64,000 nt of DNA from Escherichia phage FFH2, in sequence record KJ190158; one strand, given 5' to 3'. The position numbers and the translations under genes were made by a program. How positions within the stretch are numbered: the first letter of the stretch is position 1; every line of letters starts with the position of its first letter. Positions 29,528 through 44,546 of the stretch are shown piece after piece. The notes under the pieces are model-generated. The model saw nothing but the letters and a program-made list of their open reading frames with translations. It was not told the origin of the DNA and did not search any database.

Positions 29528-30841
29528 TAAGTTCTTCTCTTTTCTTTTACCGAGTAATTCGGGTTTTCTGTTCTCTTCGGTTTGAAGGGGTATAGAGATA
29601 CACCTGAGTGAACAGGGTGAACAACCGAACATTTGGCTATGGCATTAGCATGGCGAAGCGGACGGGTGACGAAAGAGGGGCCGGAGGACACCAGTCACTG
29701 CCATATGATATATGGGTGATAACCTGAAGAGTCTGAATAAGTGTTTAAGTACCAGTCAGAGGAAAAGGTGAATGGTAGCCGAAGGGGGAGGGGGGTTTCT
29801 TGTATCTTTAATTTGTATATTATGTATACACTTGTAAACCAATCTCATCTGAATTTGTTTACCACACAAAGTGGATAGGGACAAATATTACCTATTAAAC
29901 TTGAATTATTTATAGAAATACCACAACACCACTTAAGTCTTTGATTTTACACACAAATCCTACAGATATTCACCCTCCATATTTAACATACCTGTAACAT
30001 ATTCCATACCCTACCTGACCGATCAATTCACCCAACTACATCCCCATATTTTCCCTGTCTGTACTACCCCTGCCCCGCCGGGAGTCCCGTCATATCTGGC
30101 TTTCCAGCAAATATCACACCCACAAATATCATTGCCTGAAGAGGGTTTCATCCCATAATACATGCCTTACCTGAAGAGCGCTTCATACACCACGTAAATT
30201 TTTTAATTGACCCCCTCCCCGCCGCCGGAGAGGTTGGCTTTTCCCACACAGACCTGAAGAGTCAGCCAGAAATATCTGAACAGGTCCAGCTATGCCACGA
30301 TTTTGTGCTTGTCCTACAGGAGTGCCTCCCTGTCAGGAGCCGGTAGCGACTGGAGTGCTGCCAGGCGGACGAAATGGGAATCATTCTCATTCTTATAACA
30401 ATTCTCAAATATCGAGGCAGTGAGGCAAATTAATAGGTGAGGCCGTTCACACAATGGCACAACATTTGCAACCTATCTTGTGGGAGTGAATGAGAATACC
30501 TATCATTGTGAGAATAGTTATCATTACGGGCAATTTAACATAATACCCATTATGCGCACCACTGGCGATCCATACAGGGATTGATAACATGGGTTACTGT
30601 TTACACACATAACAATTATATTTCTTACTATTTGTGTGGGATATAGTTAGCAGCCGATAGATTAGATATTGACCTGTAGACTTCCAACCGTCCAGACGTC
30701 TAAACGCCCACACAACAAGGGTTATACATACACAACTGAATGTAAACAGGGCCGCAAAAATGCTACCATACAAGCTTGTAAATTTTTCATGCAGCACTTG
30801 ACAAAGAGGAGGAAAACTTGTCTGACACTTTAGACACAATA

Positions 30842-30888
30842 GTGACATAATATGACATAATGGTGACACTGAACATAATTGACATGCC
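30842..30888. repeat. Tandem 10-bp iterons (G/A)TGACA(T/C)(A/T)AT
   Basis: gtgacataat-atgacataat-ggtgacactg-aacataattgacatgcc. Confidence 0.55.
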
Positions 30889-30992
30889 TGACTGTTTACA
30901 TAGCTAACTATTCATACAGAAATGATAAGCCATGCCATTCGTTTGCATGATAATAATTAACTTGTTTACAATAGATGACATAATATAAAAGC

Positions 30993-31025
30993 AGGGCAAC
31001 TATTAGAAGATCTATAGTTGCCTTG
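30993..31025. repeat. Near-perfect palindrome around GGCAACTAT / ATAGTTGCC
   Basis: agggcaactat-tagaagatc-tatagttgccttg; 9-mer recurs at 31052 and 31159. Confidence 0.55.
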
Positions 31026-31774
31026 CTTGTTATGTCATGATTAACTAAATACAAGGCAACTATGATCTGATTAATAGTTTGCAGACAAACTATCACGGGG
31101 GTGATGGTTACTGCTTTTATATTATGTCGCGACTCCGTCGCGCCATGCCATTCGTTTGCATAGTTGCCTTATTGTTACAGATAAAATAATTGTATTGTTA
31201 ATTATTTCTTATCTTTCTCTTAGTCATCTAATGATTCCAGTCAGTATAGTAATGTACAGTAAACATTAGACGACTAAAGATTTCTCTGTTTATTATAACT
31301 TACCGTGACAATTTCAGGCTGTTTACGAAAAATGTTGACACCTGGGCCGATTTATGTTATGCAGTTTACACGAATAATTATTTTATGCAGGTATTGACTA
31401 TTCCGTTATTCTATGGTTGGAATAAATACTTAGCAGACTATAGAATGGTGAGCGTACGTAAATTCTGAGATCTGGCGGCTATAGTTATACTCGATTTTTC
31501 ACGTAGAACACGCTTTTGTTAGTGTGTAAGTGTATGACTTATAAAGATTTTTAGTTGTTGACAAGATATTGAAGATGTGCATCAGGTTAAATTTTGTGCA
31601 ATAGCGGCATTACGTGCAATTTTGAGAGAGAAAACGGGTAAAAATGGCCTTGCTATCACACAATGAAAAATTATGCAATAGTTATTTTACATGTATGTTT
31701 GTACAGTGTGTGGGATTGATGGCTAGTCAATTATTCCACTTGCCAGGCTGGGCCGTTTGTGGTAGGAGAAATAC

Positions 31775-31806
31775 AGACAAAAAGAAAGGGGCCTTTTAAA
31801 GCCCCT
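31775..31806 (-). terminator. Intrinsic terminator for leftward cluster
   Basis: aggggc..gcccct stem followed on minus strand by ttctttttg. Confidence 0.55.
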
Positions 31807-31824
31807 GATAGTTTAGTTAAGAAA

Positions 31825-32244
31825 TTATAATGATTCGTATATTTCATAGATTCGATTTGCCAGGTCGTTACGGTAGCGGAATTTTTCCTCACGTTTGATC
31901 ATCAGATCTTTAAAGCCATATTCTTTAAGCACTTCATTAACTTTATGGCGGCATACCTTCATATTATCCTGTGCGTCACCAATAAACCTGTTGCTATGGT
32001 GCATGGCTTTAATTTCTTCTTCCAGGACCAGAGCAACTATGCGGACCGGATCAAGCTGATAGGCGGTAACATCCATGCGGCATTGTAAACGACTTTTTAC
32101 GTCTGCCACCGGATATACTGCAACCTCTTCCCCGTCAACATTGACAATAATTAGTTTACCATCGATTTCGAATCCTTTCGCCGCCGGACCGTGACAAAAA
32201 GCGTTATCAAAGCTATATGCCGGATTATTAGATTTAATGTTCAT
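31825..32244 (-). CDS. hypothetical protein
   Basis: ORF with own promoter (32294-32322) and terminator. Confidence 0.55.
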   Translation of the reverse strand: MNIKSNNPAYSFDNAFCHGPAAKGFEIDGKLIIVNVDGEEVAVYPVADVKSRLQCRMDVTAYQLDPVRIVALVLEEEIKAMHHSNRFIGDAQDNMKVCRHKVNEVLKEYGFKDLMIKREEKFRYRNDLANRIYEIYESL

Positions 32245-32987: not shown

Positions 32988-33198
32988 AATGTTTTCCTCT
33001 CTTCTGGTTGTTGTGTGGGCACTTTTGCCCCTTCAAGATAAATGTTACCCCACCCCCTGGCAGATGTCAACGGTTTTTATAGTTCTTATATGACAGGCAG
33101 GCCCGGTGATTGTCTCCCCCCGTCGCCAGGTGCCTGCCGTTGAATAAGTATAACAAAAAACAGGACCATTGCAAGCCCTGTTTTCTAGTCAATAAGGA

Positions 33199-40810: not shown

Positions 40811-41206
40811 TTAGTAAGTTTTCAGTACTTTCCCGTCCAATCTGTCAAGCTGGATCTCGATAGCTGCAGAAAACCTATTATAAACCACATCGCCCATGGA
40901 GTCCAGCCAATCTATGACGTTATACACCTGCTCTTTATTCTTGCAAGTCCGGATCCGTTTCATTACGTAAGACGGATCAATATTAGTGCTCTCGTTGTTG
41001 TGGTCATGCGCCTGGCCTGCTGCATTAGTTATAGATTTTACAACCACCTGAAAGGGCTTTAAGGTGCCTTTTGCGTTCATCTCACGCGCTTTTGCGGCGC
41101 GGTTGTTATATGTTACACAACGGCGGCAAATGTTGACCAAATGCATATCAATAATTTTTTCATCGTTTGCCAGTTCGTTCATGATGCGGCGTACGTTCTT
41201 ATTCAT
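40811..41206 (-). CDS. hypothetical protein
   Basis: RBS aaaggaaaaag. Confidence 0.45.
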   Translation of the reverse strand: MNKNVRRIMNELANDEKIIDMHLVNICRRCVTYNNRAAKAREMNAKGTLKPFQVVVKSITNAAGQAHDHNNESTNIDPSYVMKRIRTCKNKEQVYNVIDWLDSMGDVVYNRFSAAIEIQLDRLDGKVLKTY

Positions 41207-41292
41207 GATCTTTTTCCTTTGTGTTGGCGGGAAACATTCCCGCCTTTTGTGCCCAGTTTACTTTAATTTTGCAGCGTGTCAATAATTTTTTT

Positions 41293-41691
41293 TTATTCGT
41301 GGGCGCATGTCACAATGTGCTTTTTATACCCCAGGTGGGCAGCAAGTGCTGACAAAAACTCATCTTCATAGATCCAGCCGTTGGCAGTGATCCCCATAGC
41401 ATTTAACGCGCTTTCAAGTGCTGCATTGGCCTTATCATAACCGTGACCGCTCGCCTTGCCACCAGTATAACCGTACTTGTTGTTCTTGCTGTCGTGCATC
41501 CAAAAGACGCAATAATGAGTGTTACCGCTGGAGGCGGCATAGTACCGGATCTCCGCTACTTCGTGCAAATTATTATCATCGTCCAGGCCAACCAGATTAT
41601 AAGCCTTGTAAAATCCACGATCACGGCGGCAGTTCTTGACATCAGAAAAAGAGAAGTCGGCATTGTCAAAATTAAAGGTTGTGGTTTTCAT
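41293..41691 (-). CDS. hypothetical protein
   Basis: RBS aagaggataaaatc. Confidence 0.45.
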   Translation of the reverse strand: MKTTTFNFDNADFSFSDVKNCRRDRGFYKAYNLVGLDDDNNLHEVAEIRYYAASSGNTHYCVFWMHDSKNNKYGYTGGKASGHGYDKANAALESALNAMGITANGWIYEDEFLSALAAHLGYKKHIVTCAHE

Positions 41692-41755
41692 GATTTTATC
41701 CTCTTAGTGTCTTTTGTGATTTCAGTATATTTTGTGTCGGGGCGTATGTCAATAC

Positions 41756-41953
41756 TTATTTTTTATTAAACCAGTGATTGATCTGACCTTTTGTCAGGGC
41801 GCAACGATTAAGTTGGTGCCGGGTATAGCTCTGACCGCGACGGAATTTATAAAGGCCTTGCCCGTTGTTGATGGTTACGTCCACCTGGCAAACCATTTGA
41901 TCGGTGACCACCTGGCGAGCGTTGCGACGTACTTTGATTCCGTAGGCGTTCAT
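41756..41953 (-). CDS. hypothetical basic protein
   Basis: RBS gagaggataaaaaatc. Confidence 0.45.
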   Translation of the reverse strand: MNAYGIKVRRNARQVVTDQMVCQVDVTINNGQGLYKFRRGQSYTRHQLNRCALTKGQINHWFNKK

Positions 41954-42038
41954 GATTTTTTATCCTCTCTGTTAATTAGTGTGGTGTTGTTCACCTTGCG
42001 AGGATAAGAATAACAAGAACTGTCCGAGCTGTCAACTA

Positions 42039-42215
42039 TTAGTTAAAATTATTTTTTGGGCGGAATTCTCCAGCCGCCGCCCCTGCCAGGTTAACCATCA
42101 TTTTTTCGTACTCTTCTTTATATTCCAACGCTCCCGCTATAGCCTTTTCAACCAGGGCGATAGCCTCAGCGTCATTAATAGCTACATTTTCCAGGGGGAT
42201 CATATTACCTTTCAT
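42039..42215 (-). CDS. hypothetical small protein (58 aa)
   Basis: Strong RBS agaggaggtacaaaa then ATG; first gene downstream of repeat region on minus strand. Confidence 0.45.
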   Translation of the reverse strand: MKGNMIPLENVAINDAEAIALVEKAIAGALEYKEEYEKMMVNLAGAAAGEFRPKNNFN

Positions 42216-42474
42216 TTTTGTACCTCCTCTTCAATTGTTACCTATCCTATAGCATAGGCCCACCAGGTTTACAAGCCTTCATTCTCTCCTACCTGGTCAG
42301 TTAGGTCCTGCCAGGCTGGCCCCACTAGGTTGCAGCGGTTAGTGCATCAGGTTAGAAAAATTTTTTGAAAAGTGTTGACAGCGGCCCCGCCAGGTGGCAC
42401 AATATACCTATCGAAAGGACGGCAGGCACCGGTGACGGGGGAGACAACCACCGGGGATGGGCGCTGCATAAAAT

Positions 42475-42497
42475 GAGAACGGTTATCATTATCATTT
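42475..42497. promoter_or_regulatory. Fur-box-like site
   Basis: Reverse complement aaatgataatgataaccgttctc matches GATAATGATAATCATTATC at about 16 of 19. Confidence 0.4.
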
Positions 42498-42610
42498 AAA
42501 AATTTATGCAAAAAATCCTTGCTTTCTTTGTCCTGTGTGATACTATAATAACAAGCCGGGGCAACAGGGGCCGGGAGACAATCACCGGGCCTGCCCGTTA
42601 TTCTGCAAAC

Positions 42611-42627
42611 GAGAATGATTATCATTC
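42611..42627. promoter_or_regulatory. Fur-box-like site
   Basis: gagaatgattatcattc / rc gaatgataatcattctc matches Fur consensus at about 15 of 16. Confidence 0.4.
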
Positions 42628-43231
42628 AAAATTCTAAATGAGAACTCCTCGCATTTAATAAATTTAATTAGCACGCTAATTACACTCCGTAACAATTTAC
42701 TATAAAATAGTATCCACTAAAATATTCCCATATAGAAATTTTAAAAATCCATTTCTGAAAACGAAAAATCGATTTCGTCCCTAAAAATTTCAGGCCTAGA
42801 TCCGGAACGATTTCCAGAAAATCCGATTCAGAAAACGAAAAACAGATCGAGTACTGAGAAATTTATCGAGAAAAATTTTCAGAAAATCCAAGCCCTGAAA
42901 TGAAAAGTAGATCGAGTACCTGGAAAGCTGCACCGCAACTTCAAGATAGTGGTTAGATTGTTACCATAGAAGGTCAAGGGTAAGTGGAGGAAGTTCTAGT
43001 AGAGGGAGGTTAGCATGTGTGGGAAATCTATAATGGTGGCCTGGAATATAGTGCAAACGATAGGATGAGTTATTCAGCTTGTCGCGCCTACTCTGAAAAA
43101 TCCATTTTAGTTTTCGATCCATTTTCTGATTTTCTAAGAATTTTAAAATATCCGGCCCGGTGAAATATCAAAAGGAGGAAATCCATTTTAGAAATCCCCC
43201 TTATACTTGATATGCCAGGAATTTTCAAGTA

Positions 43232-43561
43232 TCAGCTGTCTTTGTTTTTAGGTTTGTACATGCGCAGAGGTATGGTCTTTGTAACATTCCATTTCCTCAA
43301 CCCTTCCCAGCTCCAGTTGTGGGCGTGATACCCGGTTATGCATGCACTGCTGGCGTGATCATAAGCATAAGAGAACGCTATGTGCACCAGGTGGGGCCAG
43401 TCCTTCCACGGCTGTGGACCGTAAGCCTTTCTCCAACACCGACACAAACTAATTGTCTCAAGAATAGGGAGAATAACAATTCCATATACCACCACCAGAA
43501 TGGTCAGTGCAATGATTGTCAGGAACACATACCCTGCAGTTGAAATGATGATCTCTGTCAT
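43232..43561 (-). CDS. Membrane protein
   Basis: N-terminal TM segments IIISTAGYVFLTIIALTILVVVYGIVILPIL. Confidence 0.5.
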   Translation of the reverse strand: MTEIIISTAGYVFLTIIALTILVVVYGIVILPILETISLCRCWRKAYGPQPWKDWPHLVHIAFSYAYDHASSACITGYHAHNWSWEGLRKWNVTKTIPLRMYKPKNKDS

Positions 43562-43761
43562 TTGTCGTCCCCTTTCTTACGAATATAGATGTGAGAGCCT
43601 GCCTGTATATAAATTTCTCGACCATCCTCTGCAAAGATATGAAATACACGATCACCTTCGTACTCGATACGAGATATCTTCATAATGGTCTTTCCACCTG
43701 GGATACGGATCTCGTCCCCCACAGCGATGTTCCATGCAGATTTAAGCTTAAACATCTGCAC
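43558..43761 (-). CDS. hypothetical protein
   Basis: RBS aaggaggg. Confidence 0.45.
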   Translation of the reverse strand: MQMFKLKSAWNIAVGDEIRIPGGKTIMKISRIEYEGDRVFHIFAEDGREIYIQAGSHIYIRKKGDDK

Positions 43762-43993
43762 CCTCCTTTGGGAACTTGAACTCTGGCATAGCCATATACG
43801 CTACAACAGGGTTGTGATCAAAGTAGAACTGACCGTTAATTATCCCGGTTTTGTCCACATAGTTACCAGATCCTGCAAGAACAACCTCGCAAGCTCCGAA
43901 ATCCACATTGCCATTCTCATCTGCCATGGCTACAATATACTTTCCTAGAGGCATGTTTTTAACGCCGTCTACAAATGTCCACCCTTTGTTCAT
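43748..43993 (-). CDS. hypothetical protein
   Basis: RBS aggagat. Confidence 0.45.
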   Translation of the reverse strand: MNKGWTFVDGVKNMPLGKYIVAMADENGNVDFGACEVVLAGSGNYVDKTGIINGQFYFDHNPVVAYMAMPEFKFPKEGADV

Positions 43994-44014
43994 AACTTTA
44001 TCTCCTGGACTTTC

Positions 44015-44347
44015 TTAAGGTAACCAGTAAACAATTTCGCCTTTCAGTTCCATGTCGTTACCGACATAGATTTTCCAGCCATCCATTTTAGCCACTGCAG
44101 GAGTGAAGTCCGAAGAACCACTAACCTCTTTCCAAGTCCCGTAGTCAGGTTGCCAGATATAGAATCCACCTTCCTTGTCCCATGCTCCATATACCACATC
44201 GAGCAGGTTGCCCATTGCAACAATAGTAGGCCGTGGGAACAATGCATCTACAGATGCGCCACAATATCTAGTATCTTTTAAATTGCACTCCCAAAAGATG
44301 TCTGCCAGTGTGGCGGCGATAGCTTTACGTCTTTCTAATGTTACCAT
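44015..44347 (-). CDS. hypothetical protein
   Basis: ORF only. Confidence 0.45.
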   Translation of the reverse strand: MVTLERRKAIAATLADIFWECNLKDTRYCGASVDALFPRPTIVAMGNLLDVVYGAWDKEGGFYIWQPDYGTWKEVSGSSDFTPAVAKMDGWKIYVGNDMELKGEIVYWLP

Positions 44348-44354
44348 ATCATAC

Positions 44355-44546
44355 TCACTTGTTGTTGATAAGTTCTAAAACTTTCTGTCTTACTTTGTCA
44401 AGGTCTGTGGATTCAAAAACTGTACGATATCCCCAACTTTGCCCATAGGAGTGACTGCAATCCCCGTAGCACCATTGCTCAATTTGATAGTATTCAAGGA
44501 ACGGGTGCTGTCTAACTATGATACCATCCCGGTTAAAAATTACCAT
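44355..44546 (-). CDS. hypothetical protein
   Basis: ORF only. Confidence 0.4.
   Translation of the reverse strand: MVIFNRDGIIVRQHPFLEYYQIEQWCYGDCSHSYGQSWGYRTVFESTDLDKVRQKVLELINNK

Follow-up and report, generated by a model that had tools for sequence, protein, structure and literature searches.

Clusters of Fur-operator-like boxes in a non-coding hub and in the terminal repeat of rV5-like virulent coliphages

Introduction

Fur boxes are textbook elements. In Stx1-converting prophages, a single Fur box overlaps the stx1 promoter and controls the toxin cargo gene of a temperate phage, and virulent cyanophages carry PhoB boxes before pstS and phoA, as well as NtcA sites, in the promoters of auxiliary metabolic genes. 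Arrays of palindromes are also found in phage replication origins, such as the four 19-bp dyad iterons that lie beside an AT-rich stretch in lambda ori, and the primary origin of T7 consists of tandem promoters followed by an AT-rich region.

The 64,000-nucleotide stretch of Escherichia phage FFH2 analysed here (sequence record KJ190158; hereafter, the window) contains two clusters of 19-bp inverted repeats that score like the operators of Escherichia coli Fur. As at stx1, where a phage-borne function responds to iron, these would be host Fur operators on phage DNA, but here the phage is virulent, and several boxes at a time are grouped in conserved clusters that occupy its non-coding hubs and have no protein gene after them. 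They resemble the cyanophage sites in that a lytic phage would borrow a nutrient-sensing transcription factor of its host by means of the cognate sites, although no gene is served here, the putative targets being non-coding transcripts, an origin-like region and the genome ends. The arrays of 19-bp dyad repeats, and the tandem promoters predicted to fire into AT-rich repeats, recall lambda ori and the T7 origin, but no initiator gene was identified, there is no skew switch, and the repeats match a host repressor operator rather than a phage-specific iteron. Compared with the stx1 and cyanophage precedents, what is new is the occurrence of multi-box, phased, non-promoter Fur clusters in a non-coding hub and in the terminal repeat of virulent phages. 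Sigma-70 promoters and a non-coding region are mentioned in the genome papers of rV5 and CB7, Fur sites are not, and full-text searches on Fur boxes and phage returned only host-side Fur papers.

Results and discussion

Genomic setting

A megablast search with positions 41000-44500 retrieved 123 phage records with 90-97% identity, all of them rV5-like myoviruses (Vequintavirus, ~137 kb), and the window is that of a Vequintavirus, an rV5-like virulent coliphage. Among the GenBank records retrieved, 16-18 are titled 'Campylobacter phage' (host C. jejuni) and are ~95% identical to this Vequintavirus over the whole query; host misassignment or contamination is the probable origin of these records.

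The box clusters occupy two gene-free places. One is a stretch of ~2.2 kb (29585-31825) between the end of a + strand gene block and the end of a - strand block, which contains the 459-bp direct terminal repeat (DTR) along with many weak promoter-like sites, and corresponds to the 'non-coding' box of the rV5 paper. The second cluster is housed in a non-coding gap of ~1 kb (42216-43231), around which all genes are small hypothetical early genes on the - strand in annotated relatives. In each relative fetched, a gene-free gap of similar size (0.8-1 kb) surrounds the element. A 92-aa open reading frame at 42347-42625(-) (rV5 ORF198, phrog_14993), which spans both box units, was rejected as a gene: because it is disrupted by an indel or a stop in two close relatives (EdH4 and L070) and has no counterpart in other genera, we consider it non-coding and probably an annotation artefact that was carried into a protein family. 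No Rfam family matches the region, either at the gathering score or at an E of 1-5 or below, and ARAGORN predicts no tRNA in the window. One Klebsiella phage record (the Mydovirus K45PH128C2; OY978796.1, L002) has tRNA-Ile and tRNA-Met genes annotated at 1420-1573, across the homologous leader and box region; ARAGORN does not reproduce them, so that they are likely false calls, and a tRNA reading of the locus was rejected.

Fur boxes score like genuine host operators

The original prediction placed two Fur-box-like sites in this gap and both are there: against the classical 19-mer GATAATGATAATCATTATC, 42475-42493(-) matches at 16/19 and 42611-42629(-) at 15/19 positions. A better register is the 19-bp 9-1-9 palindrome AATGAKAATNATTMTCATT, which was resolved from the repeat in relatives and is the register of the single-dimer model that Chen et al. 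2007 (PMC2189734) proposed for Fur. The motif GAGAAY-N3-TATCATT, refined from the copies themselves, has exactly four occurrences (30492, 30510, 42475 and 42611) and near-copies at 42640 and 30373. In the 9-1-9 register the boxes are the following:

30373-30391: first Fur box of the DTR, AATGGGAATCATTCTCATT, 20.8 bits
30489-30525: second and third Fur boxes of the DTR, abutting, AATGAGAATACCTATCATT (30489-30507, 20.3 bits) and TGTGAGAATAGTTATCATT (30507-30525, 19.9 bits)
42472-42490: Fur box pair 1, first box, AATGAGAACGGTTATCATT, 23.0 bits
42478-42496: Fur box pair 1, overlapping partner at a 6-bp offset, AACGGTTATCATTATCATT, 17.2 bits
42608-42626: Fur box 2, AACGAGAATGATTATCATT, 23.8 bits
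42637-42655: Fur box 3, weaker, AATGAGAACTCCTCGCATT, 15.1 bits

Box 3, which had been missed in the earlier prediction, starts exactly 29 bp after the start of box 2, and its rV5 equivalent scores 18.6 bits. Box 2 is identical in 5/5 aligned Vequintavirus sequences and has a partner of its own at 42614 (12.4 bits), 6 bp from its start at 42608. Overlapping sites at a 6-bp (or 3-bp) offset are typical of Fur clusters and permit multi-dimer binding (PMC2189734); this overlap is seen at both 42472/42478 and 42608/42614, and likewise in relatives and in other phage contigs.

Scores were obtained with a symmetric 19-bp Fur matrix (15 bits), for which the best site was taken from each of 13 promoter regions that Fur represses in E. 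coli K-12 (NC_000913.3; fepA-fes, fepD-entS, fepB-entC, fhuA, fiu, tonB, cirA, exbB, ryhB, fecI, fecA, fhuF and fhuE), a set of only 13 sites that were picked after seeding with the consensus. Under leave-one-out scoring, these genuine operators reach 12.1-23.3 bits (median 18.6), and five boxes of the window, with 19.9-23.8 bits, fall in the upper part of that range. The prediction thus passed clearly when scored by matrix, the boxes scoring like the best Fur operators of the host. The sites at 30.4-30.5 kb, which had been regarded as weaker relatives, are present, yet they score 20.8, 20.3 and 19.9 bits and, given these scores and the chance controls that follow, are not weak.

The Fur consensus is AT-rich and of low complexity, and weak matches to it (8-14 bits) are common in the window, as would be expected if the boxes were chance AT-rich matches without function. 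Against this, five sites reach at least 19.9 bits, whereas simulated genomes yield ~0.05 sites of at least 19 bits per 138-kb genome. The next best match elsewhere in the 64-kb window has 15.5 bits, and sites of at least 14 bits number 10, compared with a mean of 1.46 in Markov-1 simulations. The matrix is also specific, in that all matches of at least 15 bits in 64 kb of real E. coli DNA lie in Fur-regulated intergenic regions. In the complete rV5 genome, matches of at least 17 bits occur only in two clusters (5 observed versus 0.25 expected), the equivalents of 30.37-30.53 kb and 42.47-42.66 kb of the window, and none precedes nrd or any other protein gene. Since the boxes are, in addition, clustered, phased and kept across genera, statistics and conservation together refute the chance reading.

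The phage boxes share with E. coli operators such as those of fhuA, fecI, ryhB, fhuF and exbB the inverted repeat AATGA(T/G)AAT-N-ATT(A/C)TCATT and the high-information columns, as well as partners at a 6-bp offset and scores in the upper genuine range. Box 2, read as its reverse complement AATGATAATCATTCTCGTT, and the fhuA operator, TATAATAATCATTCTCGTT, disagree at 2/19 positions, and box 1, AATGAGAACGGTTATCATT, resembles the fecI operator, TATGAGAATGGTTATCATT; the GAGAAT arm, which sets many phage boxes apart from the textbook consensus, is also present in the ryhB, fhuA, fecI and exbB operators. When 33 distinct phage boxes were turned into a matrix of their own, its per-column correlation with that of Fur was r = 0.93, the maximum in 2000 column permutations being 0.65. 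In contrast with the E. coli operators, the phage boxes stand off the -35/-10 elements, form arrays with a 29-bp period, are carried by a virulent phage genome, including its terminal repeat, and have a stronger G at position 6 (69% after symmetrisation), where E. coli operators prefer T and have G in 27%. Their left arm is almost always GAGAAT and the left and right arms are asymmetric.

Predicted rightward promoters, leaders and repeats in the gap

Along the + strand, the gap contains P1, a leader, box pair 1, P2, a second leader copy, boxes 2 and 3, a candidate P3 and iteron-like repeats, all promoters being consensus predictions:

42375-42403, + strand: predicted sigma-70 promoter P1, TTGACA-17-CACAAT with TG, bearing the upstream signature AAAnGTGTTGACA of the phage early type
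42439-42455, + strand: leader motif copy 1, GGGAGACAACCACCGGG (repeat family D7)
42519-42549, + strand: predicted promoter P2, TTGCTT-16-TACTAT with TGn, or TATAAT with a 19-bp spacer
42573-42607, + strand: leader motif copy 2, GGGAGACAATCACCGGG...TGCCCGTTATTCTGCAA
42679-42723, + strand: candidate promoter(s) P3 just 3' of the boxes, ATTACA-18-TAAAAT and TTTACT-16-TAAAAT
42726-42926, + strand: three iteron-like direct repeats of ~62 nt, spaced 74 and 65 bp (repeat families D1-D3, I1-I2)

The two promoter-leader-box units are duplicates of each other (repeat families D5 and D7), and leader copy 2 is the most conserved non-box sequence across genera. P3 is clearer in Seunavirus and Mydovirus (TTGACA-18-GAAAAT, TTGACT-17-GATACT). 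Beyond the three direct repeats, short further copies of the AAATCCATTTC type extend up to ~43200 in both orientations, in AT-rich, origin-like sequence, and relatives have analogous repeats containing GATCGAG. P1 points against the flanking genes and bears the AAA-N3-TGTTGACA element of phage early promoters, on the strand opposite to them. This element has copies on the - strand at 33065, 38739, 41277 and 45053, and rightward copies at 31327-31340(+) and 42367-42380(+), where all genes run leftward; both rightward copies are in gene-free regions near Fur-box clusters.

P1 and P2, both predicted rightward sigma-70 promoters, precede no gene, and the boxes lie ~55-100 nt downstream of them, 5' of the iteron-like repeats: pair 1 at ~+62 to +86 of P1, and boxes 2 and 3 at ~+54 to +101 of P2. 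The classical Fur geometry, with a box over or adjoining the -35/-10, was not found, the boxes being at ~+54 to +101 of P1/P2 and 16-23 nt upstream of the -35 of the candidate P3. On the - strand, a 9/12 scan across genera revealed no conserved promoter; the sequence TTGAAT-18-CAGAAT, with a box in its spacer, was rejected because the second base of its -10 varies (A/T/G) among genera and unit 1 lacks such a promoter. Of the two links originally suggested, to early and to non-coding RNA transcription, the second holds, the boxes being at a conserved distance downstream of predicted promoters without genes, and the first is not supported, no box lying before early protein-coding genes.

A conserved promoter-leader-box unit

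In distant blastn searches, no part of the gap other than 42580-42662, where the end of the leader and boxes 2 and 3 are located, could still be aligned in other genera, with 71-88% identity. The element is present in at least 249 GenBank phage records from about eight genera, with Escherichia, Klebsiella, Salmonella, Cronobacter, Pectobacterium, Enterobacter, Serratia and Proteus as hosts, and its boxes there score 20-27 bits. A module of promoter, leader and Fur-box array is common to Vequintavirus, Mydovirus, Seunavirus, Certrevirus and Phapecoctavirus, and relatives have 1-5 boxes each, of 17-27 bits, usually with an exact 29-bp period. Information content is high across the 19-bp box only, the 10-bp spacers of the 29-bp arrays being variable. 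In a uniform promoter scan, the + strand positions of P1 and P2 were kept in every genus: the -35 of P2 lies 86-93 nt before the first box in all genera, P1 lies ~160 nt further upstream, and P3 is often found just after the array. When relatives were fetched from IMG/VR by the leader motif alone, a box of at least 20 bits appeared at +32 or +62 in 12/13 loci. From this retrieval and the promoter scan, the conserved unit can be defined as promoter, leader and Fur box(es), a unit that is duplicated in Vequintavirus and Certrevirus.

Because the boxes are inside the predicted P1 and P2 transcripts and their palindromes are foldable (RNAalifold draws a 6-bp hairpin in the box), they might act as hairpins in non-coding RNAs or as DNA cruciforms. 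Compensatory base-pair changes, the hallmark of a structured RNA, were nevertheless not found. RNAalifold detects essentially no covariation (term of -0.05 kcal/mol), and positions 6 and 14 are complementary in 18/33 distinct boxes, G6 occurring with A14 13 times (Fisher p = 1.0), which is the independent variation predicted by independent half-site recognition by a dimeric protein. With no Rfam family match either, and with DTR boxes that have no upstream promoter, we hold such a role in RNA or cruciform structure to be very improbable.

Boxes of the same kind also occur outside this phage group, in viral contigs that share no detectable protein with rV5 and that have clusters of 4-13 high-scoring boxes, many of them in overlapping pairs at a 6-bp offset. 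These IMG/VR array contigs, which were selected for one exact box, are L019 (2948-3150), L024 (1976-2095), L061, L041/L014, L092 (10941-13535), L106, L038, L025, L032 and L104/L098. One array contig without rV5 protein similarity carries a DUF4055 portal, other phage contigs reach 13 boxes in 13.7 kb, and boxes in IMG/VR contigs are ~2-fold enriched near contig ends by hand count. Arrays of Fur operators may, to judge from these contigs, be widespread in phage genomes.

A second cluster, in the terminal repeat

The other cluster of the window belongs to a terminal repeat:

30364-30822: direct terminal repeat (DTR), 459 bp, identified by homology to the repeat_region annotated in phage Gotham

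The record MT884010.2 begins at the same base as the left boundary of the DTR, and we infer that this boundary is the physical genome end. As the Gotham repeat_region maps to 30364-30822, the box at 30373 starts 9 bp from that end, and, as the cluster lies inside a direct terminal repeat, the three DTR boxes would be present at both ends of the virion DNA. They have no convincing promoter partner, only weak 9/12 matches. Another record, LC739538.1 (phage phiWec189), starts 1 nt before the Fur box at 42472, where the assembly may have broken at the duplicated unit, without this being a true terminus.

Host Fur as the probable reader of the boxes

The box motif is unchanged among genera whose surrounding DNA no longer aligns and, since arrays of these boxes recur in contigs that have no protein in common with rV5, a shared host factor is favoured; a shared and highly conserved host protein would be the most economical reader. 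Fur is, to our knowledge, the only host protein with this specificity, and binding of the boxes by host Fur in vivo is probable. A Fur encoded by the phage itself is excluded at the sensitivity of tblastn, a search with E. coli Fur having found no homologue in this phage group, and a local regulator was discarded because none of the 10 flanking ORFs, all PHROGs of unknown function, has a Pfam DNA-binding domain.

Three features speak against Fur, namely the preference for G at position 6, the near-constant GAGAAT left arm and the strict 29-bp phasing, which is not a known Fur feature, and they could indicate a different protein. The boxes would then be iterons or operators of a phage-encoded DNA-binding protein with Fur-like specificity, the candidates being a replication initiator whose origin would lie in the gap, and a terminus or packaging factor acting at the DTR. 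The phased 19-bp palindromes (29-bp period, 2-5 copies) beside AT-rich iteron-like repeats, which recall phage origins such as lambda ori, are consistent with such a protein, as are the bias at position 6 with the asymmetry of the two arms, the box placed 9 bp from the genome end and the lack of any box with the classical promoter-overlap geometry. We nonetheless consider it unlikely, given the two null searches above for a Fur-like protein and for DNA-binding domains in the neighbouring ORFs, a motif that stays constant across unalignable genera and in contigs sharing no rV5 protein, and a match to the Fur matrix that holds column by column (r = 0.93), beyond the consensus alone. The best explanation, to which we give somewhat better than even credence, is that the boxes are operators for host Fur that act as an iron-dependent gate.

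Gating, origin activation and titration

If the boxes are such operators, Fe(II)-Fur dimers of the infected cell would bind incoming and replicating phage DNA at the two conserved non-coding places. The functional unit in the gap would be a sigma-70 promoter that fires rightward, followed by a conserved ~55-nt leader and then by one to five Fur boxes, the whole facing against the leftward early genes and towards the iteron-like AT-rich repeats. Bound Fur may act there as an iron-dependent roadblock or occluder on the non-coding transcripts of P1 and P2 and on P3 just downstream, and this gate would decide whether transcripts enter the repeat region, which is a candidate origin and antisense to early genes. 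The DNA ends would also be coated with Fur, because three boxes sit in the DTR, the first of them 9 bp from the end. Starting from the observed identity in sequence with Fur operators, the geometry and the conservation, we infer Fur occupancy, the sign of its effect and its consequence. That gating of transcripts in cis is the main role under selection is a tentative proposal, for which we would claim rather less than an even chance.

The gated process could be origin activation, since tandem promoters leading into AT-rich repeats, in a phage group whose member rV5 encodes a T7-like DNA polymerase and a primase-helicase, resemble the primary origin of T7. Arrays and AT-rich iteron-like repeats are both present; no initiator was recognised among the 10 neighbouring ORFs and no strand-skew switch was seen at the gap.

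Replication would multiply the boxes. The 6-7 boxes of at least ~15 bits, together with the second DTR copy, amount to ~9-10 strong operators per linear genome, and replication of these should titrate Fur in the manner of a multicopy plasmid in the Fur titration assay, where a single Fur box on such a plasmid suffices to derepress fhuF (PMC2189734). Titration could itself be the selected function: decoy operators would soak up Fur as the genome replicates, with their position in cis being secondary, and the derepression of host iron uptake and RyhB would feed the iron-dependent ribonucleotide reductases of the phage. The presence of NrdA/B and NrdD/G in rV5, the lack of boxes before phage protein genes and the phage contigs with up to 13 boxes in 13.7 kb agree with this possibility. 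However, the distances between promoter, leader and box are fixed across genera and the unit is duplicated in Vequintavirus and Certrevirus, which argues for a role in cis because a pure decoy needs neither a fixed position nor a promoter, and a benefit within one lytic cycle is conjectural; we judge titration as the selected function to be quite unlikely, both as a decoy in general and as a supply route to the reductases.

A broader picture can be drawn, although at this breadth it is speculative and we give it little credence. The virulent enterobacterial myoviruses of a whole clade, along with phages that seem unrelated to them, would use the iron sensor of the host as a structural and regulatory co-factor. 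Arrays of top-affinity Fur operators would gate transcripts, made by host RNA polymerase, by which a T7-style origin is primed or activated, so that phage DNA would replicate only with enough iron for ribonucleotide reduction. The arrays would also coat the genome ends and, with rising copy number, soak up Fur and thereby derepress iron uptake by the host. The more general statement, that the phage reads or manipulates the iron status of its host, is probably correct as far as the operator sequences tell. Should Fur bind, the course of phage development, or of iron metabolism in the infected host, would depend on how much iron is supplied, and iron would be added to the few nutrient signals of the host that lytic phages read. 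This would bear on phage therapy in the gut or urinary tract, where iron is scarce, many of the at least 249 box-carrying phage genomes being therapy candidates.

Other conserved elements of the hub

Two further elements accompany the promoters in relatives of this phage. The sequence TTGTAAAGAAnTGTAAAGA (GTAAA-N5-GTAAA), which is absent from the window, is conserved directly 5' of the P2 -35, for example in L110 (~1125-1150), L109, L112, L002, L108 and L111. We take GTAAA-N5-GTAAA to be the CpxR consensus box, which makes TTGTAAAGAAnTGTAAAGA a possible second host-regulator site in the same hub. Most genera, Vequintavirus not being among them, also have a conserved GC-rich segment of ~100 nt between P1 and P2, GACGCCACCCCACGGCGAAAAGGCGGGGCTAAC...GGAAGGTGGATCGCCGGTAG (L110 ~1015-1120, L109 ~1035-1135, L108 ~1085-1180, L002 ~1310-1400, L112, L113, L052, L127, L129, L131 and L134). 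It lies behind its own sigma-70 promoter, has no Rfam match and is a candidate structured non-coding RNA. Its alifold energy is -10.6 kcal/mol, a single pair covaries, and a small pseudoknot is possible (CCCC/GGGG, where two loci have CCAA/TTGG).
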